Of a stretch of DNA of 64,000 nucleotides, positions 1,138 through 47,000 are shown in pieces. The stretch spans positions 49,414,001 through 49,478,000 of the forward strand of contig NC_047017.1 in assembly GCF_902652985.1 (NCBI RefSeq), read 5' to 3'. The DNA comes from Pecten maximus. Its lineage: Eukaryota. The translations under genes were made by a program, and so were the position numbers. Under the pieces are notes generated by a model that was not told the origin of the DNA, did not search any database, and saw nothing but the letters and a program-made list of their open reading frames with translations. The number at the start of each line of letters is the position of its first letter. Within the stretch, counting starts at the first letter, position 1.

Positions 1138-4100
1138 CTAAAATAAATTTAATGATTTTCGGTAACATGAAATTAAACACAATCAACCAAGGAGGGAGAA
1201 ATGGAGAGGTTTAAACTTGGATATTTGCTTTACATCATATATGTTAGTACATTGTATATCATATTTTTATACATTTGAAGATATCGTACATGCTATACGA
1301 GATATATTCAATATATATGATCGGTATTACTACCTGATTGAGTAATGAGGCGATATCTTTATTAGAATGGGATTATTAGTTGACTCTATGAATTTGCGAT
1401 ATCACCGATTCATTACAATAACGTCACTGAAATATAGAAGAAAGTAAAATGTTGCTCACTATTATGATAATATGTCCTTATTTTGTTATAAATTTAAACC
1501 TTTTTTCGGTATTTGTAACATAGTTAAAGTCAAGTGACCAAACAGAAGGCACCCGAAAAACTGTCGAGTAGCAATTGAGGAAAGAAGCATGACTGCTGCG
1601 TAGTTCTAAAATAAATAAATAAATGAAAAGTGTGGGAAACGACATCCAACCTCTTGTGGGCAAACATTGATTTATAACTCACTGAAACAGTCGAATTCCA
1701 ATCTATTTTCGAAGTTCCTTATTGTTTGGTTAAATTGATTATTATGCATTCCTCCAATGAATTTGGTAGTCTACATCTGAAGTAAACTGAGCGTAAAAGT
1801 CCACGAGTCGTTTGATACAATTTAATGTCATTGATACATTTAGTATTTAGATATTTCCTGATACATTATCTCGTTTTACTCGACAAAACTCTCACTTAAC
1901 AGTAGGTCTAAGGGGACTTGTCTATTGATCTGGATAATCTACCTAAGGATGTTTAAGTTTACCACTATGTACTTGGACAACGAATAAACACACTACAACA
2001 CCAATATATCATACCTACCCACATAAACTGTGAAGACGCACACCAGCAGGACTGAGTACCTCATATTTTAAACTCACTTCAACTGCTCGACATCAAGTTA
2101 TCACTGACTACACTAGTGACGACGGATTTCTGTACAGGTATACAACCCGGTATACACCCTGTCCCCATATATCTCGTGTAGATATCAAACACACATACAT
2201 AGAATATGATATCATAACACCAGATAAACAGTTATCAAATACTGTCACTGATTATTCTATTATCATCTAGCATGCTCAGAGTTCAGGGTGATCCATTTAC
2301 CGACTACAATGTACAGTCAAACGTTCGCAGCAGCAAGTTCTGTACACACTTACCCATGTGTATTACAGATCACATGACGATAATAAGTGTATTGCAGATC
2401 ACATGACGACAATAAGTTATGTCATGTGAGTTCCAAACAATAGAATGCAATACGCTTGTTTATCTATATATATATATTATATAAATAGTATATGATCAAT
2501 TATTCGTATTGGAATTTATCATGTTTTGAAACATATTCGAGGGTTAATTTATAAATTACTTTTATAGTTGTGTATTATGTGAGTGTCGAATAAGTAGGTC
2601 ATTTCTCTACACAATGTAAACATTTACTAAAGGCTTCAAAGTATTTCTGTTTATATAAATTTGGGCTTGACATACACCGTATACACCTACGTTCTTGAAG
2701 TTCTATATCAATTCTGGGGATATTATTTTCGTGTTGTGGAAGAATTTCAGAGTTTTTAAGAAAATGGGTGGAATAATGCTATATATTCTAGAAATTTTCA
2801 GCCAAAATACATGTAAATAATCCCGTAGCGGATCAAAAGTTCGAGTGCGTTTCTCATAGAATGACTTTGACACCACGATCTCCGGTACTGGCTATTTGAC
2901 TAGACAATACACAAAACCGTACTTGTCATGAGTTTGGATGTGTAGGATGAACTTTTAAACAGAAATTGTAGAACAGTTATAGGTTACAGTGTAGAGGAAC
3001 TTATATTCTGTTCCTGTACTGGAAAATAGCTTTAAATCTGCCTCGGCCAAGATGACTTAGTTATAAATCAGTGGGTTTTCATGTACCGGGGTACAGTACA
3101 CACACAATCCAAATCTATGTCACGAATCTAGGTCATATAGTTTTGTCCCTTACAAACACTCGTGATCTGAATTCATCCGAAACCTAAGAACTGATAATGA
3201 CTCGCCTATCAGACTACATTACCTATGAGTTCCTCGTTAATCTGCCAGACTCAATCTTGTCGCGTTACAATTAGAAATAGGGGACGTTGTCATAGCTTAT
3301 ACTTTATCCTGAAAAGTTGAAAATTCTGATACATTGGCGATTGTTTACAAATGTATATCAGCTGTAGATACCATTGTTATGCATTGTTTAAAGTGTCTCT
3401 ACAACACGAGGTTTGTATAGATTATTATTTGCCAGTTCTCAGTAGTAATTAACTTTGCAGACATGAATTATTATATAACTATCGATTGGGAGTTGACCTA
3501 GTTTTCCACGGGATAAACGCAAATGGTCTTTTACCAATGTTCAAAGTGTATTGGAGTTTAGGATCAATTTAGGATAAGTAGTCATTTGTATAGGCCCTTA
3601 ATTTGGCCCCAGATGGCTTTTGATACAAATCCATGTACCAAATTTCGGAGTTGTAACTTGTTGACCATTGGAAAGTCTAATGGTCGACATCATATCATTC
3701 AGAAATATTCTATTTCCTCATGCCATTTTAACTAAGACGTTATTGATACTTGTTGGTATGCCTAAAGCGATTTACAATTGTGACTATGTCCGGATTTTAC
3801 CTAGAGTTTAGCTGGTGTCGTTATGAAGTAGAGGACGCTTGCTCTTCCGGATCAGCTGGTCTAATCATCCTGGTACTTTTTCAGGAGTCTCCGTGCAAAT
3901 CTGTAGTTTTGTTTAAATTCTTTGTTTAATCGACTTTGAGTTATAATTGTGGTTTTGTAAATGTGTTGGTATTCTAGACTGAAATGGGACTCCTGCAAAA
4001 ACACCAGAATTGTGCTCAGGAAAGAGAGAACAGGGTTCATTCCACACAGGTGCGTTGTCAAATGTAACTCAAGGTGTAGTTAATGAGACACACTGAATCC

Positions 4101-5666
4101 CACTGTATATCCTTCTTTTACTGAACCGGTTAGATCTTCACCTTTATCATCAACTTTAAAAGAAGCCCGGCACACGATTCTCGGAATAAATATATTTTGG
4201 AGACAGAACGAGTAATATTTTACACATCCAAGTTAATGAAGACATCTATGTAGAGATTTATTTCGAGTTAATAGTAACGGTCCAAATTGCAGCTGTGGAA
4301 ATCGTTGGGAGAGTACTGATAAGCTCTTCCTTGAATGTAAAATTTATGTTTGATTAAGAATAGAATAATCTTATTTGATTGGTTACAAAGACTTGAATGT
4401 TAACGTTTTAAAAATATTCTTGTATGATAATTAATTTTATGTCTGAAATAATTATAAAAGTCACATCCATCACACCAAGTCCAGTGAAAGATTTATATGT
4501 AGTGTGTAAATATAATCAATTGCTATTGTCTTGGTTCGTAGTTTGTTGTACTGGTTGTAACGTCAGAAGCTTTAATTCTCCTTTTCTCGATCGGTCTTCC
4601 ATTTCATTCCGAGTTAAGTTGCACAAGTTCTACGACACCTTGTATTTATACACTATTGTTAATATGGCTTTCCTTTTCTAATAATTCTGTAGATAGTTTT
4701 TGTCCAATTTAATATAGGACTAATTATCTTTATTTCCTAAATTCGATTCACTTTGTCTTTTGAACTCCTCCGTGTTAGCCTGGTACCCTGATCCAGACAG
4801 CCACCGATGTACCAATTAGGATCAGAGGAAGTACACAATCGATGAAACCGAATGGTTTAGTTTCTTGTCGACACCTTAATTTGTTGATCACCAAAAATAT
4901 CGCTGCATACCCATGGGATTTTTTTTCATGCGAGACTGGTTATATTGAAGAGCTTATTCGAACCGTGCAAAGTCCTTAAACTGATATTACCTTGTGGGAC
5001 CTGGTATCTAAACAGCTAATCTAGTAAGAACTGTGATACAAGCCAATACATTCCTACTATGGCGATATTACAATTATCAAAAGATACTATACATGGCAAG
5101 AAGACTGTTTTAGAAAAAAATGTTTAATCGCCGATTTTGTGGTACAAGATACATATTTCTGAAAAAGGACCCAAACTCACAAGTTTAACAATTTGTCTTA
5201 AACATGTCATTTTTACTATGATCAGATGTCTTAAAAGTATTATTTAGTAGCATTTTTATCGATTTAAATGCCTCCCTTTATGCCTTATTTGTGTATAATA
5301 TTTTTTTTATAATAGTTTTATATCAACCCCGAATCCGCGCTACATGGTGTGATAAAACAATCCAACAACTCGAGTTCGTACCCAAATGTATTAATAAGGG
5401 AATGTTCTACAATCTGCGACATTAAAAATGTATGCTTACATATATGTGCTCCTGTAGAAAGTTTAGTAGACTCAATTTGTAAATGTTTTTACATTAATAA
5501 GCAATTAAGTTTGAATTCATTGCTGATTTGATCTTATCTATTGCCATTTTGAACTTTTCCAGTCGATCACTATTATCTACCCAACCTATAACAGGTAATA
5601 AGAATCATTGTTATGTGAAAATATTTTTCACATGACAATTTATGTATTGTCTTATTATAGAGCACA

Positions 5667-7699: not shown

Positions 7700-8775
7700 T
7701 TAATATTCAACATAATCCGCTTCAGTATCTATACACTTTTGCCAACGGTGTTTAAGGGCCTCAATGCCACTTTTATAGAACTCCTTTTTTGGCTGTTCAG
7801 AAAGTCATCCACTGTATGTATGACGTCATCATCGGACTGAAAGTGGGTGCCTGAAATAGCTGTTTTCAAGTTTGGAAATAGATGAAAGTGTGATGGAGCG
7901 AAATCAGGTAATAAGGCGTGCTCAATCAATTTAAAGCCACAATCGTGAATGACAGACGTGTAAACATGAACATTGTCCCGATGGAATAACACACCTTAAG
8001 CGAGCTTTCCGCGTTTAATATTTTCTCGTAACTGCCTCAGAAGTGAAGCATAGTATGTGCCATTGATTGTTCGTCCCTTTTGGAGATAATCTATCAGCAG
8101 AATACCATCTGCATCCTAGAAAACCGAGGCCAAAGCCTTCTCAGCTGATGGAACAGTCTTTGCCTTCTTTGGCGGGGAGAGCAAGTCTACTTCCATTGTT
8201 TCGATTGTTGTTTGGCCTCTGGGGTAAAATGATGGACCCTACTCCTATAACATTAGAGGCCGCATTTTGCCGACTGCGACCTCGTTACTCGGCGCCTGTC
8301 AAAAGTATCTCGCCGTGTAAAATCTCCAACATTGTTGGAGCAGATGGACCCATGTTTTATCCAGAGACAAATCTCTGAAGAAAGTTGGCAGGATCTTCCT
8401 CAAAAAGGTTTATATTAGCAGGCGATAATGTGCGCCCGGTGTGCTTCTGATCATTTGTCATAAGTCTTGGTACCCATCAGGCCGAAATTTCTCATTGCAA
8501 GATCCTCGGTCAGCATGGAATGTATTCTTTACTGTGAAATGCCAAATCTACTAGCTATATTTCTGTGACTCGTCTGTCAGTCATAATAATATCATGAACT
8601 CGATTGACCATTCTGGGGTTGCAATATTGACAGGCCTCGGCCACGCTTAGTTCTGCCAACAACCGTTTCACTGTAGCAGATGAAGGGAATCTTTCCCTAG
8701 TGTTGCCATATCATTATGGATATCCTTAGGTGTTAAACCTTTTTTTATGCATTTTGGATGACTAATTTTGTCCAT
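7700..8775 (-). pseudogene. Mariner transposase pseudogene
   Basis: ATG at 8775 (MDKISH…KGLTPKDIHNDM…), WVH-HFTPEAKQQSKQW, LFHRDNVHV, PDFAPSHFHLFPNLK (YSPDLAPSD-like), C-terminal KCIDTEADYVEY* (TAA 7700-7702). Multiple frameshifts and stops. Confidence 0.9.
8240..8342. mobile_element. 103-bp MITE-like insertion with 9-bp TSD inside the transposase
   Basis: gatggaccc duplicated at 8231-8239 and 8343-8351. Removing the insert restores TWVH-HFTPE. Imperfect terminal inverted repeats and a terminal palindrome ctccaacattgttggag. Confidence 0.8.
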
Positions 8776-8867
8776 TTTGCAAAAGCCGTTTGTCTTGTTT
8801 ACACTAACCGAATGAGACAAGTCCTTGGGCACACAGTCCTATATAGTCAGAGGATAATAGGATTTAT

Positions 8868-9456: not shown

Positions 9457-10810
9457 AAAAGAACATCCTTGAGTACTTCCTTCAATTCGAGGCTTACAAC
9501 ATATCGATCATCCCTTGTATATACATATTTGCAACATCGCGAGAAAATACCACTGCATGACATTTATACATTAAATAGATTTTCTTTGATGTACATGTAG
9601 GTCAAAGGTCAAAATACATGCGAGAGTGGCCTACTTTTGACATGACACACCGTCTCGGTGAGGTGCCAAACCCATGACTCAGACCCTTCTTTTGTAGTCA
9701 AAGGTCAAATTGTACCTTAGATTGACGTACATTTAATACCGCTACTCAACACACATGTACAACTACACTTGGGTGAATACATGCCTTAGTATGGAAATAA
9801 ATCCTGGACTAACGTTTTCTATGATGAAGGTCAAAGTAAAGTGTTAAATTGAAAGTCAGTGACTAAATGGTATTGGATACACAACACTGCCAACACATGT
9901 CCCAAGTATGAAGTTCCAGTGATAAGGGTAGGAGATACAGCCTAGACGAGTTTTTTTTTATGTAGGTTGGAAGGTCAGAGTGACCCACTTTTGATTCATG
10001 ACACACCGCCTCGCTTAGGTCAGGTGAAAACATAGCCCAAATATCAAGTTCCAGTGGCAAATAGTACAGGACAGGGGAGACGGACACAATGCAAAGCTCC
10101 CTTTCCCTCTGTTCAGGTAATCCCAGTGAGGAACCGTCTAAATTCATACAGAATGACAGCTTTTCGGGTCCCTGTATTCAATTTTTATTCAATTGCAATA
10201 TTGTTACTGTAAATCTGTCTTCAAACAATGAAACAGCAGGGAAGGGAGATAGTTTGGCATCACAGTATATATACAAGAGAAACAAAATACATTATTCAAC
10301 TTTAATACATCCATCAACATGAACACTACCAGCTATGTCATAACCATCAAATCAATATAATGGAATCTACCTTCTTGTCTCGGAATATATTATTCACATC
10401 TCTGACACCAAATGCATATATATCATTGTCTGTCTTATGAAATCAAATGACGATATATTACTATATTGCTTTTAGCAAACTAATACACCTTTCTAATTTT
10501 ATTACTAATTTACAAATGAAATCAGCATAAATTAAAAGAAATCTGCTTTTCCCTGTCAGCACCGACTTTGATTTCACCCTATATTATTCTGTCCTTTCTT
10601 CACGACGCCTTTCTGCATACTTACTACCACTGCCTCTCATTACAAGTTCAGCTTTGTCTGCCTCTCCACTGCTGGTTCAGCACCATGAAAAAGTACAAAC
10701 TAAACTGCTATCAAGAGTTCAAATGTGTACTACAGTAGCTCCATATTTCAATTAACAATGACATACGTACAGGTCTCACAGAAAATATAAACAAAATTGA
10801 AATATGTACA

Positions 10811-10932
10811 AAAACCATACAAAATTTACAATATTCGAATTGTTAAAATCAAACCAATTTTATATGACTTAAAACCATACAAAATTTACAATATTCGAAT
10901 TGTTAAAATCAAACCAATTTTATATGACTTAA
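10811..10932. repeat. Perfect 60-bp tandem duplication
   Basis: aaaaccatacaaaatttacaatattcgaattgttaaaatcaaaccaattttatatgactt occurs twice. Confidence 0.9.
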
Positions 10933-13646
10933 GTAGACATTATGAAGAAAAGAAACAAATTATTCAATCATTCAAGCATGTGTATACAGCACTTACACAA
11001 TGATGACACTTAGATATAGTGCAAATGTTTAATATGCCCTTCCACGGAGCTGCATGTACAAAATATTTACAAGTCGCATATATATAACGGCGACACACAA
11101 AAAAAAGTATGCACTCAACATGCCTCTTCTAACGACTTGCATGATTCTCAGAGAACTTCAATAAGTTGAAGTTTATTAATATTATAAATATATTTCCAGT
11201 CAGTGAATGAAATGCTAGCTTTATCATTTCATGAAAGCATCCCCCATGCTCAAAACACTTAGCTCTTTTTCATATTCTAGTGATAATTCAAATTTTACGG
11301 ATTTTCAATTATTTAGAAGAGCTTTAGTTAGTCTCTATAAGACATATTGTTTTTAATGCACTTAGATCTTATTGTTTTACTGTGTCATATATATATGAGG
11401 TTGGCGAGTATGGAAACTTTTAGGAACATTTAAATGAAGGTTGGATTGAGTTAAGATTCATACACTAGAAAAAGGTGTCAAAATTATTGGTTCTTTGACT
11501 TTAAAATTTGTGGACTTTGAAGACCTAGCAAATTATCAGAAACTTCCTGGTGTCTAGAGCATATAGAAGACATTTAAAAAATAGGTTCAGGTCATCCAGT
11601 TGACCCTTTAGCAATTTCAAAAGTCAAATGACAATTTCTTGGAAATCTTAAGGGTCAAAACATGTCAAATAGACGTGTGTTTTTTCTATCCCAAGAGCTA
11701 TGTTTCATTTTGGGAGTCAAAAACCCACCATCAATGGCCTACTGAATGCCCTGTGGTTGAAAGGGCCAGTTAACAGTAGAATAAATATAATCCCTACTGG
11801 AATCTACATGTCATTGTTAACCATTGTTACAATTTCCCTCTCTCGTCCGTATATTATCAATCATCCATTTGCCATGTGTATCCACCCCAATGCCATGACT
11901 AGCAATTAACTTATTTAATCTATTTTCACACAATGTCTCGATTTAATATTAAAGCCATACATGTAACAAAAATTCACTATGGCTGTGTGAACCTTTTGGG
12001 GTGACTAAATTTTTGTTGTGGAAAAAAAAAAAAATGTATCAATAAACACCTTACCATTTTCATTCAGTATCTTTAACAGTAAGTTTTAGGAATCGCTTCT
12101 CTGACCAGAGAATAAGGACATCAACTGAAAAAGAAATTGAAATAACATTTTAGTACAAATCCAAAATTACAGTGCAGCTCATCATCTGAAATGTGTTTAA
12201 TTTTTGTAGGTATAATTTATATTTGAAGTTTATCAAAAATGTTATGGATTCAAAGTTTGAAGAACATCTTTATAACAGTATCATTATGGTATTTTTTCCG
12301 TTAATATTTTCTTTCTCTCTTAAAATTTTGGTAATTGGTCGTAATTAATCATTGAAGTATTATTGAAATTCATTTCAGATGATGATTTTTTTAGATAGAT
12401 TAGATTGAAAGATTAGAAAAGAGATGAGAGAAAGAAGGGAAAGTTGTGTATTAGACTTTTGTAACTGATCCACTACATAAACACCGGAACAGCTTATTCA
12501 CTGTATTTGGTACATTTATGTAATTATGGAATATTACAAGGGAGGTGTTAAAACTCATGACAAAGTTGCATTTTTGACTGATGTAAAGTCGAATAATTCT
12601 TTCATTAAAATGAAAGAAGAATTAATTTTTTCGTTAAAATGAAAGAATATTCATATACTGGTTCATCTAATTCTGATCGTATCTGTGAAATCATGGTTCA
12701 CAGACTTCGAATCCAGGTCATTGAATTCTGAGACTTTTTAGGGACTTTTTTTGTGAAATCAAGATAAATATCACAAAATTGATTTTATCACAAAACTCCG
12801 AAAAGTTGTTTTTAGAGTATTTCTGAAAACAAAATATCTCCTTATTTTTCAATACCAAAGACACAAATCAAATGCTTTGGGCTTTTAAAGCACAACACTG
12901 AATTCCAAAACTTTTCCAGACCTTTCTTATCTGTGAACCATGAAAACTGATCAAAGCAAACTAGAACTTTTCTTCTGTCAAGTCAAAAATTTGTATCACT
13001 TCCTCATCTTCCAGCTGTATATCAGATAATTTGTAATTTTCTGTTGGTAATTAAAATGTGTGGAATCTGCTGAAGTGATACAAGTTTTTTCATCTACTGT
13101 ATAGTGTAAATTTAACATATGTTTTCTTTTCACAGAATGACACCGACCATTTGCATTGTATACTCCACCAAAGCAAACTGCTTCTAGTAGTTCTGAACCA
13201 CTCCTAATGATGTGTTGACTTTTTCATGTTCTCAAACCGAGCACAGGTATAGCTGGAAATGTAAATATACTTGCATAGAATTGGTATAAAATGATACAAA
13301 AAAATAATCAAAAATGTAGTCACCCCATTTCACAAGTTATAACAATGTAAAAATCAAAGTTATGTAAAGATAGATACTATTGATTAATTCGAAACACCAG
13401 ACATATATTTTCTTAAATCAACTGAACATATGATGGATTTGATTTCTCTGAAATTCTGATATCAAAAACTAATACAGTATATTCTTTCAGTGTCAAACTT
13501 TCAATGTGTAATGAAGATACATATACATGTATTGTTGTCCCTAAGCAAAACTTTTTGTAACATCAAAAAGTTGAGTGCTTTACATTATTTTCTTCTTCTA
13601 GTAATATTCACTTATATAATTACCGACCATTTTTTATGACTCAATT

Positions 13647-14693
13647 TCAACCTTTTCCTTGAACCTTTCCATAGGAATGGTCGTAAGTGATAGCCTTTGC
13701 AAAGGCTGCACTGGAAGCACAATTTGCACAGAATTCCAAAGACACAGATCCATCAGAAACATGAAGACAAACACCCGCTGTTGTCTGGCCCGACTTTTCA
13801 TTGGAATTTTGTTCCGCTGTACATGTTGATGAGGGACATGGTTCAAACTGGTCATCCTTCTTTCCTGGTTTTATTTCTTTCGGCACTGAAGTTGCACTTG
13901 TATCTTTTCGCTGTTTTCCGTACCGTGTACACATTGTACCGATCTGTTTGTTTTCATTTTTATTTTTTCTTGATTCTACTGGAACAATGACAGACCTTGT
14001 AACAGTATTATCATTGATGTCTTTGATGTTTTCTTTGTTATATCTGTCAACTGTTAATGAAGTTTGGAATTTAACGCCTGGTGTATTTTGTATGTTGCCA
14101 ATCAAGTGTGCTAATGTTGTTTGGTTTGCAATGACGCTTTTTAAATATTTGACTTCTGTTTCCAACTGATCTAACGATGACTGTAACACACTGTTTTTAG
14201 TTTTGAGACTTGTATTTTCTGTCTGTAGCTTTTCTACCGTCGTTTCTAATTCCTGTGTGTGTTTCTTTTTCTTTTTACGATTTTCGCGAGCTGCAACGGC
14301 GCTCTTCGACATACATGCACCTTCATTGGAATTTAAATACATTGCCGAGCTCGAATCGATGCTGTCGTCCGTTAATGATCGTTTTCTGCTTGCATTCGCC
14401 TGTCGCGGATTCTCGCTATCGCTGGTTTTGGGTGTAGGGGTAGGTCGTCCTCGACTACCATTATTCAAATAATCAATCAGTTCTTTCTCTTCGTGTGTAC
14501 TTATGCTAGCAAAATTCACTTTTTCTAACTGCATGTCACCATTAGGATAAACACGTATGACTTTCGATTTTTTAGAAAAGACTTCGGTGTCGGTGTCCAA
14601 AACACCGTCAAATAAATCGAACGAGTCATTTTTGTCATCATCGAAAAAATCCATGTTGGACGACGAAGATTCAAAGTCATCAATATCACACAT
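13647..14693 (-). CDS. CREBZF: CREB/ATF bZIP transcription factor (Zhangfei-like), single coding exon, ~348 aa
   Basis: Acidic N-terminus (MCDIDDFE…DFFDD…FDLFD). Basic region and zipper SKSAVAARENRKKKKKHTQELETTVEKLQTENTSLK…EVKYLKSVIANQTTLAHLI. Family-typical C-terminal GVCLHVSDGSVSLEFCANCA and a DHSY motif. ATG at 14693 preferred to 14900. Confidence 0.88.
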   Translation of the reverse strand: MCDIDDFESSSSNMDFFDDDKNDSFDLFDGVLDTDTEVFSKKSKVIRVYPNGDMQLEKVNFASISTHEEKELIDYLNNGSRGRPTPTPKTSDSENPRQANASRKRSLTDDSIDSSSAMYLNSNEGACMSKSAVAARENRKKKKKHTQELETTVEKLQTENTSLKTKNSVLQSSLDQLETEVKYLKSVIANQTTLAHLIGNIQNTPGVKFQTSLTVDRYNKENIKDINDNTVTRSVIVPVESRKNKNENKQIGTMCTRYGKQRKDTSATSVPKEIKPGKKDDQFEPCPSSTCTAEQNSNEKSGQTTAGVCLHVSDGSVSLEFCANCASSAAFAKAITYDHSYGKVQGKG

Positions 14694-16484
14694 TTTGCCT
14701 TCGACAAATAATCTAATTGGCTTACCGATGTGCAACGCGCCTTCAATAATTAAGGTTAGGCAAGTTTCTTTGTGGCTTTTGTGGCGCTCAATTTTCCAAC
14801 ATGGCTTCCTCTGCGCACGTTGAACGTTTTCTTGAAAACTGTCGAAAAGGGAGGTAACTGATAGTGGAAACCGCAGTGACACAGGAAAAGTACTTAACAT
14901 AGATCTATATGTGATCCGTTAAACATTAAAAAAACTTATATTTTTGGTCTCTAGGATATTGTCTGATTCTAGATTCATTTACCTAAGTTTCAAACTAGGG
15001 GGAGATGAGCCAGTATCGAAATTTAACTGAGCAATTCTTCACAAAAAAAACTTAGGGGCTGGTGGACAGTCTACTGCAGTATAACATATAGGTAGTTCAT
15101 GTAAGCTTAATAGAAAAAAATAGCACCTACCTACTCCTTTCCAAAAAATATTGTTTAACAAGGGATTTTCATCTTAACTTTGGTAAAATATCTGTATCGA
15201 GCCGAGTTAAAATTTTTTCGTAACGATAACGTTATGAAAACTAAACGACGCCATACATGTAAGCTTACATGTATTGTTGTAGATTTCATTTCAAAATATT
15301 TTATTCAATCAAGCATTTGAATTAATTTATATACAATACTTCATAATAGAGATAGATTTTAGATATAAAAATGGATTGGACAACAGGCTAAGCCTATACA
15401 GGTCCTTGTTGTAGATAACCAAGAACCTCATAAAATGGAACAATGTTACCAGTAACGTTTATTACGATTATTTAAATGCAACATGTTCATTCATTTTCCA
15501 GAGTTGAAAGGGGTTGCGTTTAACTGAAACGTATGTGATTATTATAATTTTCATATAATCTGGCGCTCAATATGCGTAAAAACAGGATTAAATACAAAAC
15601 ATAAAAAACCAAAATTCCTCTGACGTCGCATTCCTTCATACGCATTTAAATAGCTCTGCAATATATTTTCATTTCTCTAGGTATTACGACCGATTCAAAT
15701 ATGAAAAAAGAAAAAGAAAAAGAAGAAGAAAAAAACCGAACTAAAAAAAGACAATATTTCTTTTGTCTACCACACAAACTACAAACAATGAATAAAGCGA
15801 TAACGCCATTGTAATACACATGCATTTAAATAAAAATAAAAATTTCTTCTCACCTTTTTTTTCTTCAAAATCCTACGCCACTGAAGTGCATGTACTTATA
15901 AACATATCGAAAGATACGTTCATATGATTCTACAGACGAAGAACAGAGATTCGTTATTTGCGGTCTTTTCCGACGCTGCCATTCTAAACTCACTGCTGGA
16001 CAATTTTTTATCACATCCTCCGCCTTGGTCAGCGTTCTCCAGGTCACTCTGTTCGTCCTTGATTATCAGTTTCACTGGTGCCATATATAGGAAAAGATCG
16101 AACACAACCATTTTTTGACAACATCGTGGCTGAGAGAAGGAAAAGGGAGAGAGGGAAGGGGAGGAAAAATTAACACTGAAGTGCCGAAAGTTTTGATACG
16201 TATATTTTAAAACTCTCATACAACATACAATTTCTCGTCATTTTTTAACTGCTGTTGCCTGCGATATAAAGACATTTAGTAAAAGTCATTTAGAGTAGGA
16301 CTTGTAATGATATGTTTTCTTTTATTTGAAGAACACGAAACTTATTTTATATTTGATGTTCAACAAACGGTTACCGGTTTCTAATCAATTTCACAAAAAC
16401 TTCTATATTTCTCTTAACAACACTCGCTCGAAACATTAGAAATATCTGTAGTTATTTCAACAAACTGTGACACCTTAAAAAAAA

Positions 16485-41000: not shown

Positions 41001-44000
41001 CCACCCACCAAGGGGAACCTACATATCAAATTTCAGAAAGATCCCTTCAGTACATTCTCAGAAATAGCGATAACAAACTTCAATTGTCAAAATCCAAGAT
41101 GGCTGCCTGTCGGCCATGTTGTTATCCGATTGGTCTCAAAACGCAATATGCATAACTAGGCACCAAGGGGAACCTTCATATGAAATTTGAGAAAGATCCA
41201 TTCAGTACTTTCTCAGAAATAGCGATAACAAACTTCAATTGTCAAAATCCAAGATGGCTGCCTGTCGGCCATTTTGTTTGCCGATTGGTCTCAAAATGCA
41301 ATATGCATAACTAGGCACCAAGGGGAACCTACATATGAAATTTGATAAAGATCCCTTCAGTACTTTCTCAAAAATAGCGATAACAAACTTCAATTGTCAA
41401 AATCCAAGATGGCTGCCTGTCGGCCATGTTGTTATCCGATTGGTCTAAAAACGCAATATGCATAACTAGGAACCAAGGGGAACCTACATATGAAATTTGA
41501 GAAAGATCCTTTCAGTACTTTCTGAGAAATAGCGATAACAAACTTCAATTGTCAAAATCCAAGATGGCTGCCTGTCGGCCATTTTGTTTTCCGATTGGTC
41601 TCAAAATGCAATATGCATAACTAGGCACCAAGGGGAACCTACATATGAAATTTGAGAAAGATCCTTTCAGTACTTTCTGAGAAATAGCGATAACAAGAAT
41701 TGTTTACGGACGGAGGGACGGACGGACGGAGGGACGGAGGGACGGACGGACGGACGGACGACGGACCACGGACGCAGGGCGATTTGAATAGCCCACCATC
41801 TGATGATGGTGGGCTAATAAAAATTAAAAATTAAAAGCATTTACTTCATTTTTACTGATAACTGGTTCCATATTTCACTTCAACTATACATTATAAAGCT
41901 GATAATATATACATGTAGGTAATATTCGGTTAAAATGAAACATAACATAAAGTTTGCTTCTATTAGATTTTGAATTATAGGTAAATCTGGCAGAAACTTT
42001 GACATATACAGATTTGGAGAAAACACTTGCCAGCTTTGTATGACCAGGATGGAAAATGAAGTCCCTGTTTAATAAGTGCTCCAGGAACACATATTTGTTG
42101 TAGAGATCGTCTGTAAAATAACCACAGAGAAACATATAATTCAGTAGACATGGTTTCTATGGCTTCAATTCTACTGAACTATTGAAGCTTAACATTATCA
42201 GGTAAACAATTCATATACCACATTTCTCTTCCTCTTTTTCATGATAAATATCTTAATAATATAGAAACAATAAATCTGACCTACTCAAATCCTACAATAG
42301 TATTAATTAATCAATCCCCCTATTATAGTCTTGTTTCAATATTCCTACCTGTGTTACAAATTCTGGAAGACTTCTTCCATTAGTTAGTTTGCCAAGCATA
42401 CTATAAACACACAAGAAGAGGTTGCAATAAAGTGTTTGCTTGGTATCAGAATGTACTGACCTAAAGGTAAAGTGTCCTGAGTACAAACATTGATGGATAG
42501 GGACACCATTGCGACACGGACAAAAATATGCATTAGTTGATTGCGGTAGATAGACAACATCAGGTGCTGAGCTGCTGACTGCATAAGTTGGTCCTCGCTG
42601 ACATGTGACGGAACATCCATTGATACTAACTCTATCACATCGTCCTTGTTGATGGTAACAATGTTCTTGTGGAGTTGTAGTGTGCTCCTTACCACTGTGT
42701 CCGAGGATTCGTTACCTGTATGATACAAATGCATTTTTGACCTTCTAGGTATTAAATTCTACCTAATTGTACCATGGAAACTTATCCTACAGAATATCAA
42801 ATGAAAGCATTGATGTCTGACCAGTCACCCTAAAATAATTTTGATGCAAAATATCAGAATCCTATTGATTGACCACCACTGCATAAGGGCATAAAGCTTT
42901 CCAGTGGTGAGTTTAAGATATTTTATGGACCAGAACATGAACCAGAACATGGACCAGAATATGGACCAGAATGTGGCAAGAGTGTGGACCAGAGTGTGGA
43001 CCAGAACGTGGACCAGAGTGTGGACCAGGATGTAGACCAGAGTGTGGACCAGATTGTGGACCAGAATGTGGAACAGATCGTGGACAATAATGTGGACCAG
43101 AATGTGGACCAGAGTTTGGACCAGTGTGTGGACCAGATCATGGACCAGAGTGTGGACTAGAGTGTGGACCAGAGTGTGAACCAGATCATGGACCAGAGTG
43201 TGGACTAGAATGTGGACTAGAATTTGGACTAGAATGTGGACCAGATCTTGGACCAGAGTGTGGACCAGAATGTGGACCAAAGTGAGGACCAGATCGTGGA
43301 CCAGAATGTGGACCAGATCGTGAACCAGAGTGTGGACCAGAATGTGGACCAGAGTGTGAACCAGATCATGGACCAGAAAGTGGACCAGAGTATGGACCAG
43401 AATGTGGACCAGTGTGTGAACCAGATCGTGGACCAGAACGTGGACCAGTGTTTGGACCAGAGTGTGAACCAGAATGTGGACCAGAACGTGGACTAGAGTG
43501 TGGAACAGAATGTGGACCAGAGTGTGAACCAGAATGTGGACCAGAGTATGGACCAGAATGTGGAACAGTGTGTGGACCAGAGTGTGGACCAGAACGTGGA
43601 CTAGAGTGTGGAACCAGAATGTACAGGTAAACCACATAATCTGTCTGATTACACCTCACTAACCTGGCCAATCTATGTATGCCCCTAGATTTAAGGCATG
43701 GCGTTTGAGCCACTCAACCTCTCTGACAAGCTGTCTCATGGGTATACCGTCCTTGTTCTGTACCATCACTGCTGCCGTCATAGACCAAGGGGAGATAACC
43801 ATGTGCTTTAGGTGAAGCAGCACAAGATCGTAGGCAAGACTCTTCAGTAGATCTGTCTCCTGTGCAGACAGACTGGCAATATACCTGTTAAACAAAAAAT
43901 TATATTCATTTCTGAGATGTGGCAATTCCAAGACAGTTTTAAAAAAATGCAGGGGTATATACATAACTAAATATTCCTGTTTACATTGATACAATAATCT

Positions 44001-47000
44001 TTCTATTTCATAAATTGATCTAATCAGTGGAATTAAGAGGGACTCGATCATCTTGTTGACGATGAGTCAGACAAGTTATGAATAAAGACAAAGAAGCTAT
44101 TTTTTTGGGATAATATAACAAACTTGCATACAGATATTCCAGGATGCCTTTAAAGTCAGGTTTCATTTTACAAAGGAAAATTGTAATTTTCCATAACAAA
44201 CAAAAGGAAACAGAGGTTGTTGCATTGTATGATTGATAATTCAGGAATGACAATAAAAAATTGACAAAAAGTTTTCCCAATGAAAATAATAAAATAACCA
44301 AGGATTTGAGAACCACTTTGAAACAGCGATGTTGTTGTGATACAGTGGTATATAACTCCAAATCATTTATTGATTATCAACAATGACCAGTTAGCAGACA
44401 CATGATAAATTCTATTCAGCTAACCAACCTATCCTTTCTAATCGGGAATATTGACATGAACATCACAATACCAGTACACTGTAACAAATCTATTAAACAT
44501 TTTCTTTCCAAATGTATATACATGTATATATTATATATAAGTTGATGTATAAAATGTGTGATTTAATAAAAGACAATATAACTTTTAGCTAAAGACTAAT
44601 ATTTACTCCAGACATCAACTTATACACCCCATGATAAGGAGAGTAGTCACCTTGGTGCAAGGTTGTGGATGCTTCGGTCTACTTTGCCGACTGAGTATTC
44701 TCGTATTGACAGAGGATCTCCAAAATGAATGTGTACATTTCCAAAGTCTTCTGACAATATGTTTCTTGCTTTAAACAATGCCTATTAAACAGAAAATGAA
44801 TTAAGAGATTACAATATAATAAAAAAAAATAAGTTCTGCTTTATATTACATCATGAGCTTAAAGAAGTCAAAACAAAAACCACAATTGAAAGTCAGTGTA
44901 TTAACTTCAGTTTTGAATACCGGGACCAACATTTCTTACAGAAACCCCTAAATGGATTTAATATTATTTTATTGATGACTGGTTTATATACAACTTTTAG
45001 GAATGAGAAAGTCTTTGTGAGAGTAAACAGTCGTTTTTTATTTTAAAGCACGAATCCCTTGGATTTGGTTTGGGGATATCACAAATACCTAAAGTAACAT
45101 GGTCTCAGGTTGACACTTAGTTATGAACGCTTGTGGGACAATTTTACTTCTTCATTTACTGAGGGGGATTCATTGGATTTCAGGACTCCCCAGTAATTAT
45201 ATTTTTATGAACACTTACCGAGGTGGACTCCTTAGATTTCGGGACTCCCCAGTAATTATATTTTTATGAACACTTACCGAGGTGGACTCCTTAGATTTCC
45301 GGACTCCTCAGTAATTCTATTTTAGGAACATTTACTGAGAGAAAATTTTATCTTTTTACTTACTGAGGTGGACTCATTGGGTTTTAGAATTCCTTAGTAA
45401 TTATATTTTTAGGAACACTTACTGAGGTGGAGGCTCCGTGGGGTTCGAAGTTACATTAATTATATTGTGGCCCAATTTGTGGGAAAACTCAATAAGGGGC
45501 AATTCCATGTTTTCACTTAATGAGGTTGACTCTTAAAGTTTTTTCGAGACTCCTCAGTAATTCTATTTTTAGCAACGTTTACTGAAGTGGACTCTTTCGG
45601 GATTCGGGACTCTAACTAATTCTATTTTTAGGAACACTTACTGAGGTGGACTCTTTGGGTTTTGGAACTCCCAGTAATTCGTAAGCATAGAGCTTCTCTT
45701 CCAAAATTTTGTCATAGCTGATGCTGACTGGGATGACCATGATGTCAGGAATGTGAGCTTTGAAGTATGGCTCTAGTGATGCAGACAGCATTCCTGAGAG
45801 AAACAAAGGGGTTATGAAATAAGATATGTGGATCCAGATACATAATGGCTAATGTGTAATAGAAAGGTTCATATCAATATTGGTAAAATGGCTGCATGAA
45901 TGTAACATGCAAATATATATTTGTGTTATAAGGAATATTACAGGGATAATTCTAGACGATGAATGGTATGGTAACATTTTTGAGTTTTAAGAAAAATGAA
46001 TAGGAATTCTGATGTGACAAAGCTCATTCTGAAAATTTCAATGAGATTCAAAATGAATACATGGGTAAAATCCCCACAATCCTGCCCTAAAATGAACCCT
46101 TAGGTAGGTTTGGAAGAAACTAGATGACATACCAAACTTTGGACAGTATGACTTTGCTGTTCTGCTGCGGGTACCCTCCACATAAAATTCCAACGGATGA
46201 TCGCTGTTACATATCTGTGTCTGCACATACTCTGTGAAAACAGCCCAGTACAGCTGGTCGTCACCAAAACTTCGGCGAATGTAGAAGGCACCTGAATTCC
46301 TTAAAAGCCATCCAAAGAATTTCATTCCCATGAAATCTAAAAGCAACAAATAAATTGATTCAAATGTTTTGAACTTTGTTTTACATCTAACAAACTTTAA
46401 ACACAATCCTTGTAAAATAAACGGTTTTTAATATGGTAATAAACATCCGTGTAAAATAAAGAATGAGGTATGAAATTAAAAAGCCTTAAATATTTTTAAA
46501 AAGCAAATTCATGGAATTTATATATCCTGCTTTCCTGGCATATATTGCAGGTAAAGATTTTTGAGGTAAGAAGTACACATGGCATAATTTATAGATTGAC
46601 AGAATGATAAATTCTGTTTTGTCATAATGAGTTGCTTGAAACTCACAGAAATAAAATAAAGTCTTACACAAAAGTAAGACGTTTTATTGGACATGTATTA
46701 TGGTATAAAGTAAACTGATTTGAAAAGACTTTTCTTCTTGTCTGCTATTACCATAATACATTGAATCCTGCTCCTAAGTTTGAAGACTTACAGAAAATAT
46801 TTGGGGAGTTATTTAATAGCAAATAACAATGTTTTTCATAAAAACAAGGGGCGATAAATCTGTTACAAAGTTTGATAATAATCAGATTATAATTGTGGGA
46901 GTTATTGCATGAAAACAGCAGCAAAGTAAATTTCTGTTAATCAAGGGGCCATAATTCTGCCAAAAATAATGTCAGGGAGAAGTAACAATCAAAATGTGCT

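Follow-up and report, generated by a model that had tools for sequence, protein, structure and literature searches.

Conserved non-coding exons and an alternative intron around the whole coding frame suggest unproductive splicing of a scallop CREBZF-family gene

The window analysed here is a stretch of 64,000 nucleotides of scallop (Pecten maximus) DNA, and positions are counted from its first letter. It holds a gene of the CREBZF family with an intronless coding sequence, which is flanked by non-coding exons on both sides (Table 1). A DHHC palmitoyltransferase gene (PF01529; 17938-20157, plus strand) is arranged head-to-head with it, about 3 kb off, and a glycerol-3-phosphate acyltransferase-like gene (GPAT_C) occupies 42384-44051 on the minus strand, with a low-complexity repeat frame at 42825-43637. 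The broken stretch at 7700-8840 (minus strand) is presumably a remnant of a mariner-type transposase; two of its frames gave no Pfam match at 0.001.

Table 1. Positions of the CREBZF gene elements in the window, in the order of transcription.
Feature	Positions	Strand	Evidence and remarks
Exon 1, 5' leader, upper end approximate	14726..14810	minus	joint 14726->13252, fading RNA cover
Alternative intron, 1473 nt, holding the whole CREBZF coding sequence	13253..14725	minus	spliced and retained forms
CREBZF-family bZIP coding sequence, intronless, 348 aa	13647..14693	minus	Pfam bZIP_1, protein likeness, colinear RNA contig
Weak donor-like site D1, AAATG|GTCGGT, 19 nt past the stop	13620..13632	minus	0/7 runs; counterparts elsewhere
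Non-coding exon 2, 105 nt, weak donor D2 AAATG|GTCGGT	13148..13252	minus	both ends used in RNA
Conserved exon-2 motif GGTGGAGTAT	13169-13160	minus	identical in L002, L003, L004
Intron 2, 1023 nt	12125..13147	minus	spliced in X12, X13, X7; retained in X1, X3, X7, X8, X13
Non-coding exon 3, 70 nt, donor D3 AAATG|GTAAGG	12055..12124	minus	RNA joints
Conserved exon-3 motif GAGAAGCGAT	12101-12092	minus	invariant in 5 aligned loci
Intron 3, 1383 nt	10672..12054	minus	joint 12055->10671 in 7/7 runs; also retained
Exon 4, terminal here, lower end approximate	10329..10671	minus	X1 contig 10329-10652

The predicted protein carries a bZIP domain (PF00170, bZIP_1, E 2.6e-7, above the cut-off). Its best named relatives are two scallop proteins (66% and 64%), the relative P0002 bears the CREBZF name in UniRef, and chordate 'CREB/ATF bZIP transcription factor' clusters are among its neighbours in the Atlas both by features (0.94) and by structure. 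The Cys/His motif behind the zipper at the C-terminus, a mark of the CREBZF family, is conserved in the alignment. A contig of run X3 (13061-14755) runs colinear with the genome across the frame and its stop codon, which is read at 13649-13647, and confirms the lack of introns in the coding sequence. A longer frame opens at 14900, but the RNA cover fades within the bin 14774-14900, which probably places this start upstream of the transcript; thus the start codon is probably the ATG at 14693. In three close relatives the protein begins with a Met that lies four codons ahead of the leader donor described below (window 14738-14726); the matching codon is not ATG in this species. A second intronless gene of the family is present in the same genome (L024:954-1988, contig C2, about 46,606,450-46,607,490); it is without a good leader donor and without the motifs of the 3' module, and has a candidate 3' UTR exon at about +531 to +615 behind its stop, the donor region of which resembles one in L016. 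One-to-one orthology with the vertebrate gene is at most a possibility, given this second family member on C2 and poorly resolved trees of non-vertebrate sequences.

Assembled contigs from 8 of the 24 listed runs were compared with the window, seven of organism A and one of organism B. The seven runs of organism A amount to six data sets, as the depths of X1 and X15 are identical and the two were counted as one, and only X8 is on record as RNA. Such contigs show presence and not absence. Their depth cannot rank the parts of the gene, a 3' bias would give the same pattern, and depth was not used as a level; this holds for exon 4 and the third joint, which were several-fold deeper than the contigs of the coding sequence in X8, X12 and X13. 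Run X21 of organism B gave only a 38-nt stray match to the window.

A preliminary description, made from the letters of the window alone, had proposed that the 3' UTR of the gene is multiply spliced and that every donor in it reads AAATG|GT. The sites are as it had them, from the stop codon and the 19 nt to the exon end at 13628 to the exons 13252-13148 and 12124-12055 and their AAATG ends. The proposed junction 13148->12124 was recovered in three of the seven runs, and the onward junction from 12055 leads to a new exon at 10671 in all of them. The acceptor at 13252 is also used, but with a donor at 14726 (three of the seven runs) instead of 13628. The junction 13628->13252 was seen in 0/7 runs, a count which is not taken as non-use, and an unbroken contig crosses 13628 in six of the seven. 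The uniform donor form holds for D2 and D3, both of which are used, and fails for the donor at 14726 (D0), which reads CATCG|GTAAGC. All three joints have GT..AG ends with one shared letter, and for all three introns the retained form is covered by contigs as well. The joints lie 499-1592 nt behind the CREBZF stop, and the coding sequence and a downstream joint were together on none of the contigs of the organism-A runs, so that spliced isoforms keeping the coding sequence are predicted ones. The 11-mer AAATGGTCGGT, common to D1 and D2, occurs in the two strands of the 64 kb window only at these two sites, and the shorter AAATGGT occurs 17 times (5 plus, 12 minus).

Exon 4 contains an AATAAA at 10503. 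The transcript ends near 10330-10440, and no RNA cover was found in 10114-10327 in four of four runs. A GTAAGT donor-like site stands at 10625/10624, 47 nt into the exon, and was not seen used in the organism-A contigs. L002, L003 and L004 have counterparts of this site, 45-68 nt past the corresponding acceptor, which suggest a putative fifth exon in some lineages.

The joint 14726->13252 was found in runs X1, X15 and X7, that is in two of the six data sets; its contigs have a likeness of 80 and 29 letters on the short side, and come from runs not on record as RNA. Since D0 is located 33 nt before the start codon, splicing from it to the acceptor at 13252 takes out the start, the whole frame and the stop in one intron. 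The same intron is retained in the X3 contig mentioned above and in a contig of X7 (13224-14725). The D0 site reads I-G-K in the untranslated upstream frame of the window and V/I-G-K in the three close relatives, and this match suggests that the G|GTAAG is kept in them. Among more distant loci, 7 of 13 have a GTRAG in the 120 nt that precede the first ATG (2.8 expected), and a U1-match score for donor-like sites within 150 nt before the first ATG gave a combined p of 0.008 for nine loci of the main group and of 0.026 for all 13. No convincing leader donor was found, by score or by eye, in L002, L010, L015, L016, L024 and L025; L015, L016 and L024 belong to a second paralog group with poor leader-donor scores. 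As far as the compared sequences go, the deep conservation of D0 has moderate support. A four-codon upstream ORF was noticed at 14802-14788 (minus strand), near the estimated 5' end; if exon 1 includes it, the RNA without coding sequence would have this ORF as its first frame and would thereby be an NMD target.

Counterparts of the downstream region were looked for in a scan of metagenome contigs, which gave 21 CREBZF-family loci. L005 and L006 (near copies of L008) and L019 and L020 (near copies of L013) were left out, and the paralog from the own genome, L024, and L025 were added later; the counts below take in the window, and the patterns were fixed after inspection of the data. The module pattern, consisting in this order of the exon-2 motif, a weak donor, an acceptor and an A[AT]TG|GTAA donor, was found in 7 of 20 loci (the window, L001, L002, L003, L004, L008 and L014, hence 6 of 19 others), where dinucleotide shuffles gave an expectation of 0.01 for this post hoc pattern. 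The full module is absent in the other 13, several of which are short or belong to the paralog group. Single elements, likewise chosen post hoc, were found as follows: T(G)GTC.GT, no more than 500 nt from the stop, in 13 of 18 loci (2.9 expected), GAGAAGCGA in 5 of 18 (0.04 expected), the exon-2 motif in 7 of 18 (0.12 expected) and AAATGGT in 9 of 18 (3.4 expected). Since the patterns were set after viewing the data and the window is counted, p-values overstate the case, and the order and position of the elements are the stronger argument. The six other module loci are no more than 35-41% identical to any named protein, with a span of 28-45% when the best local match is taken, and in the poorly resolved trees they fall in four long-branched groups (L001; L002/L004; L003; L008/L014), none of them with the scallops.

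Counterparts of D1 are present in L001, L002, L004, L008 and others. The interval that runs in L008 from D1 to the acceptor of exon 2 is missing, with a precision of 2 nt, in its relative L007. The gap would represent either spliced RNA or the loss of an intron, and on either reading it speaks for genuine splicing at a D1-type donor in that lineage. A conserved intron layout is seen in the module of 7 of 20 loci and in the vertebrate 3' UTR-intron transcripts discussed below, and the proposal of a multiply spliced, conserved 3' region behind the intronless CREBZF frame is supported by the RNA joints together with the ordered module in the relatives.

Several observations were made on individual loci. 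Among 93 pattern matches in viral contigs there were no CREBZF relatives, and among 73 in genome contigs there was one, L025; this animal gene of the CREBZF family sits on a contig of 575 kb within a bacterial genome record and is likely a host contamination of that assembly. In L013 an otubain (Peptidase C65) gene at 3754-4649 on the minus strand ends tail-to-tail with CREBZF, some 500 nt past the CREBZF stop; the 3' region of this locus is therefore short, with a single candidate intron. L002 has an in-frame stop at 2025-2030, in the N-terminal part, while a near-identical cluster member is whole; the stop is probably an assembly error or an allele. Two Daphnia proteins named 'X-box-binding protein 1' in UniRef (P0029, P0039) group with CREBZF-family loci, and L015 carries the CREBZF C-terminal motif; the label on the Daphnia proteins may be wrong.

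A junction more than 50-55 nt behind a stop codon triggers NMD. In an RNA which keeps the coding sequence and loses intron 3, the distance from the stop to the last junction would be 1592 nt, and 569 nt when intron 2 has been removed as well, and by this rule such an RNA is a predicted NMD substrate, with EJC-dependent NMD in molluscs taken as an assumption. The fully spliced RNA would be about 0.6 kb long; as computed from the coordinates, its longest AUG frame has 18 codons, and the last junction lies 237 and 126 nt beyond the ends of two of its short frames. The unspliced RNA would have a 3' UTR of about 3.2 kb. On balance we find it probable that unproductive splicing caps CREBZF: D0 deletes the coding sequence, introns 2 and 3 mark the RNA for decay, and the weak donors and motifs tune the process. 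The D0-spliced RNA would be unable to make CREBZF, and RNA which keeps the coding sequence and loses intron 3 would enter EJC-dependent NMD. The protein would be made mainly from unspliced RNA, or from RNA in which D1, close to the stop, is the sole donor used. How much RNA escapes may be set, through splicing factors, by the linear exonic motifs together with the weak T(G)|GTC.GT donors, and the output of CREBZF could in this way report on the activity of splicing or NMD under stress. The gene layout is likely an ancient off-switch acting through splicing. In humans, SF3B1 knockdown lowered CREBZF in four cell lines, with the probe position unstated in the accessible part of the report (PMC4430703), and this is the opposite of a simple rule by which less splicing gives more CREBZF.

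The 3' introns could instead be ordinary or expression-enhancing 3' UTR introns of a productive mRNA, the skipping of the coding sequence at D0 being a minor, lineage-limited by-product. The D0 joint was seen in only three of the seven runs, and the support for a deep conservation of D0 is moderate. The accessible parts of three reports agree with this reading: 3' UTR splicing of Arc also raises translation (PMC5934489), many transcripts with 3' UTR introns are highly expressed (PMC13223760), and the human stZF protein is made from a spliced form (bioRxiv 2022.10.10.511668). However, D0 comes close to the donor consensus, and three relatives keep it as G-K codons; a joint at most 85 nt from the 5' end is presumably hard to sample, so that its rarity says little. 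The unusual weak donors kept over great distances moreover point to regulation, and we regard the ordinary-intron explanation as unlikely.

The spliced RNA of four exons might also be a functional lncRNA, or the host of an intronic RNA, with CREBZF as a nested passenger of its retained first intron. In keeping with this, the exonic 10-mers are conserved and the remainder of the exons is not, and a donor-like site in the fourth exon is found in four loci. Neither the window stretch nor any of 11 loci gave an Rfam match at the gathering score (sub-threshold matches: two in the window, one in L010), and the intronic k-mers shared between loci are just AT-rich words and splice sites; with no Rfam match and no shared intronic block, a snoRNA or miRNA host is not indicated. 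No consensus fold was found for exon 2, that of exon 3 is a helix of -1.1 kcal/mol without covariation, and the two exonic motifs have no conserved pairing partner in five loci. The motifs adjoin splice sites, as splicing enhancers do. Such a non-coding function of the RNA seems improbable to us.

The AAATG at the exon ends was the starting point of another explanation, in which splicing would create tiny downstream ORFs that start at these AUGs, and reinitiating ribosomes, running over the junctions, would remove EJCs or raise translation and thereby adjust NMD. AAATG matches the start context of CREBZF itself, and at the ends of exons 2 and 3 the AUGs stand in tandem and in frame. Conservation of the AAATG|GT ends held at the third donor, where AATG|GTAA is present in six of the seven module loci (L004 has TTG) and also in L017 and L025, but not at the first and second donors, where AUG was found in 5 of 11 and 5 of 8 loci, respectively, at sites picked by eye. 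The variants there are TTG, ATT, AAT, GAT, CTG and ACG, and the common form is the GTC.GT on the intron side. The frames behind the third donor, as read by eye, vary from 5 to over 40 codons and differ in sequence. Since the donor is kept while the AUG varies, and the frames are not conserved, the form of the donor seems to be under stronger selection than a start codon; from these comparisons we take the shared AATG mainly for a selected splice-site feature, though the third AUG may still have a role. The EJC is deposited 20-24 nt upstream of a junction, and here it would sit upstream of the exon-end AUG. The role of these AUGs in mini-ORFs, to which the preliminary description had pointed, is accordingly doubtful, and the tuning of NMD by reinitiation appears quite improbable. 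In the third donor, position +4 is an A and the exon does not end in AG. Donors of this kind were the most sensitive to the loss of U6 m6A in Arabidopsis, according to the accessible part of PMC9803359. A tie of the third donor to U6 m6A is by this analogy a lead only, as many ordinary donors share the form; such a dependence could possibly link the gene to the supply of methionine or SAM.

That the joints are artefacts of assembly or template switching and the motifs due to chance is hardly credible: the evidence consists of contigs only, mostly with 29 letters on the short side and with X8 alone on record as RNA, but three skips with GT..AG ends and one shared letter occur at sites predicted beforehand and across studies, and the module is conserved. 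Two further candidates were examined and rejected. A protein-like frame over the spliced exons with two TGA stops could have been a selenoprotein or its relic, but no AUG opens it in the covered transcript, exon lengths vary among relatives and no SECIS family was found in Rfam. An origin of the three donor ends by tandem duplication was dismissed, as there is no repeat and each site has its own distant counterpart.

A wider form of the unproductive-splicing reading may be put forward tentatively, as a possibility that we would not yet call probable. Across phyla, CREBZF would lie concealed within the first intron of a non-coding transcript of its own, where a strong leader donor and a weak donor behind the stop would compete for one acceptor; the choice between them would keep or delete the protein, and the chain of donors and motifs would sense the state of the spliceosome or of NMD. 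The conserved non-coding exons point to an old post-transcriptional control of a stress transcription factor, and a whole ORF within an optional intron would be an unusual on/off design, for which exact short elements (four splice sites and two 10-mers) can be given. For vertebrates it predicts a CREBZF isoform which skips the coding sequence, and expression values that vary with the part of the gene measured.

Alternatively spliced 3' ends of mammalian CREBZF, which the preliminary description had mentioned, are indeed known for the human gene. In the accessible part of bioRxiv 2022.10.10.511668 the coding form of the human RNA is by default unspliced, four variants that arise by splicing are flagged as NMD substrates, and the protein of a tailed isoform is made from spliced RNA. 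Transcripts of CREBZF with 3' UTR introns (zebrafish one, mouse one, human four with 2-5 exons) stand among the Ensembl rows seen of the S3 table of PMC7310861. In this EJC/upf1 paper zebrafish crebzf is in the list of 3' UTR-intron genes and absent from three other supplementary files, including the up-regulated list, and, in the text available, stop-proximal introns too can trigger decay in some vertebrate genes. The human and mouse genes, as far as that material describes them, resemble the scallop gene in having an unspliced default mRNA, NMD-flagged 3' variants, a donor at or near the stop and conserved non-coding junction sequence. In contrast, the accessible part of the human study describes no isoform that removes the whole coding sequence, and conservation there is just among the homologs of its figure. 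Compared by layout, the first donor of the window gene lies behind the stop, adds no tail to the protein and was not found in use. In the literature searched, coverage of which was partial, no report of invertebrate CREBZF splicing or of a CREBZF isoform skipping the coding sequence was found. What is new here is a splice, seen in RNA, that takes out the entire CREBZF coding sequence, and an apparent extension to invertebrates, with conservation of non-coding exons at the level of sequence. To our knowledge, motif-bearing non-coding exons shared by lineages with a protein identity of just about 35-40% are rare outside splicing-factor genes.

The coding sequence of Arc/Arg3.1 is intronless, and we know of no leader donor in that gene which skips it. 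Its conserved 3' UTR introns couple the mRNA to NMD (PMC5934489, accessible part), whereas the introns of the window are often retained and have weak donors. In exitrons and in the retained coding intron of Tgif2, coding sequence can be removed as an intron, as here (PMC10985678, PMC1402312, as far as accessible). The intron at 14725-13253 is not an exitron, since it holds the start codon, the whole ORF and the stop and is flanked by non-coding exons. In SR and hnRNP genes, conserved non-coding exons and splice sites divert RNA to unproductive forms. The target of the unproductive splicing suggested here is a bZIP transcription factor, which makes direct autoregulation by RNA binding unlikely.
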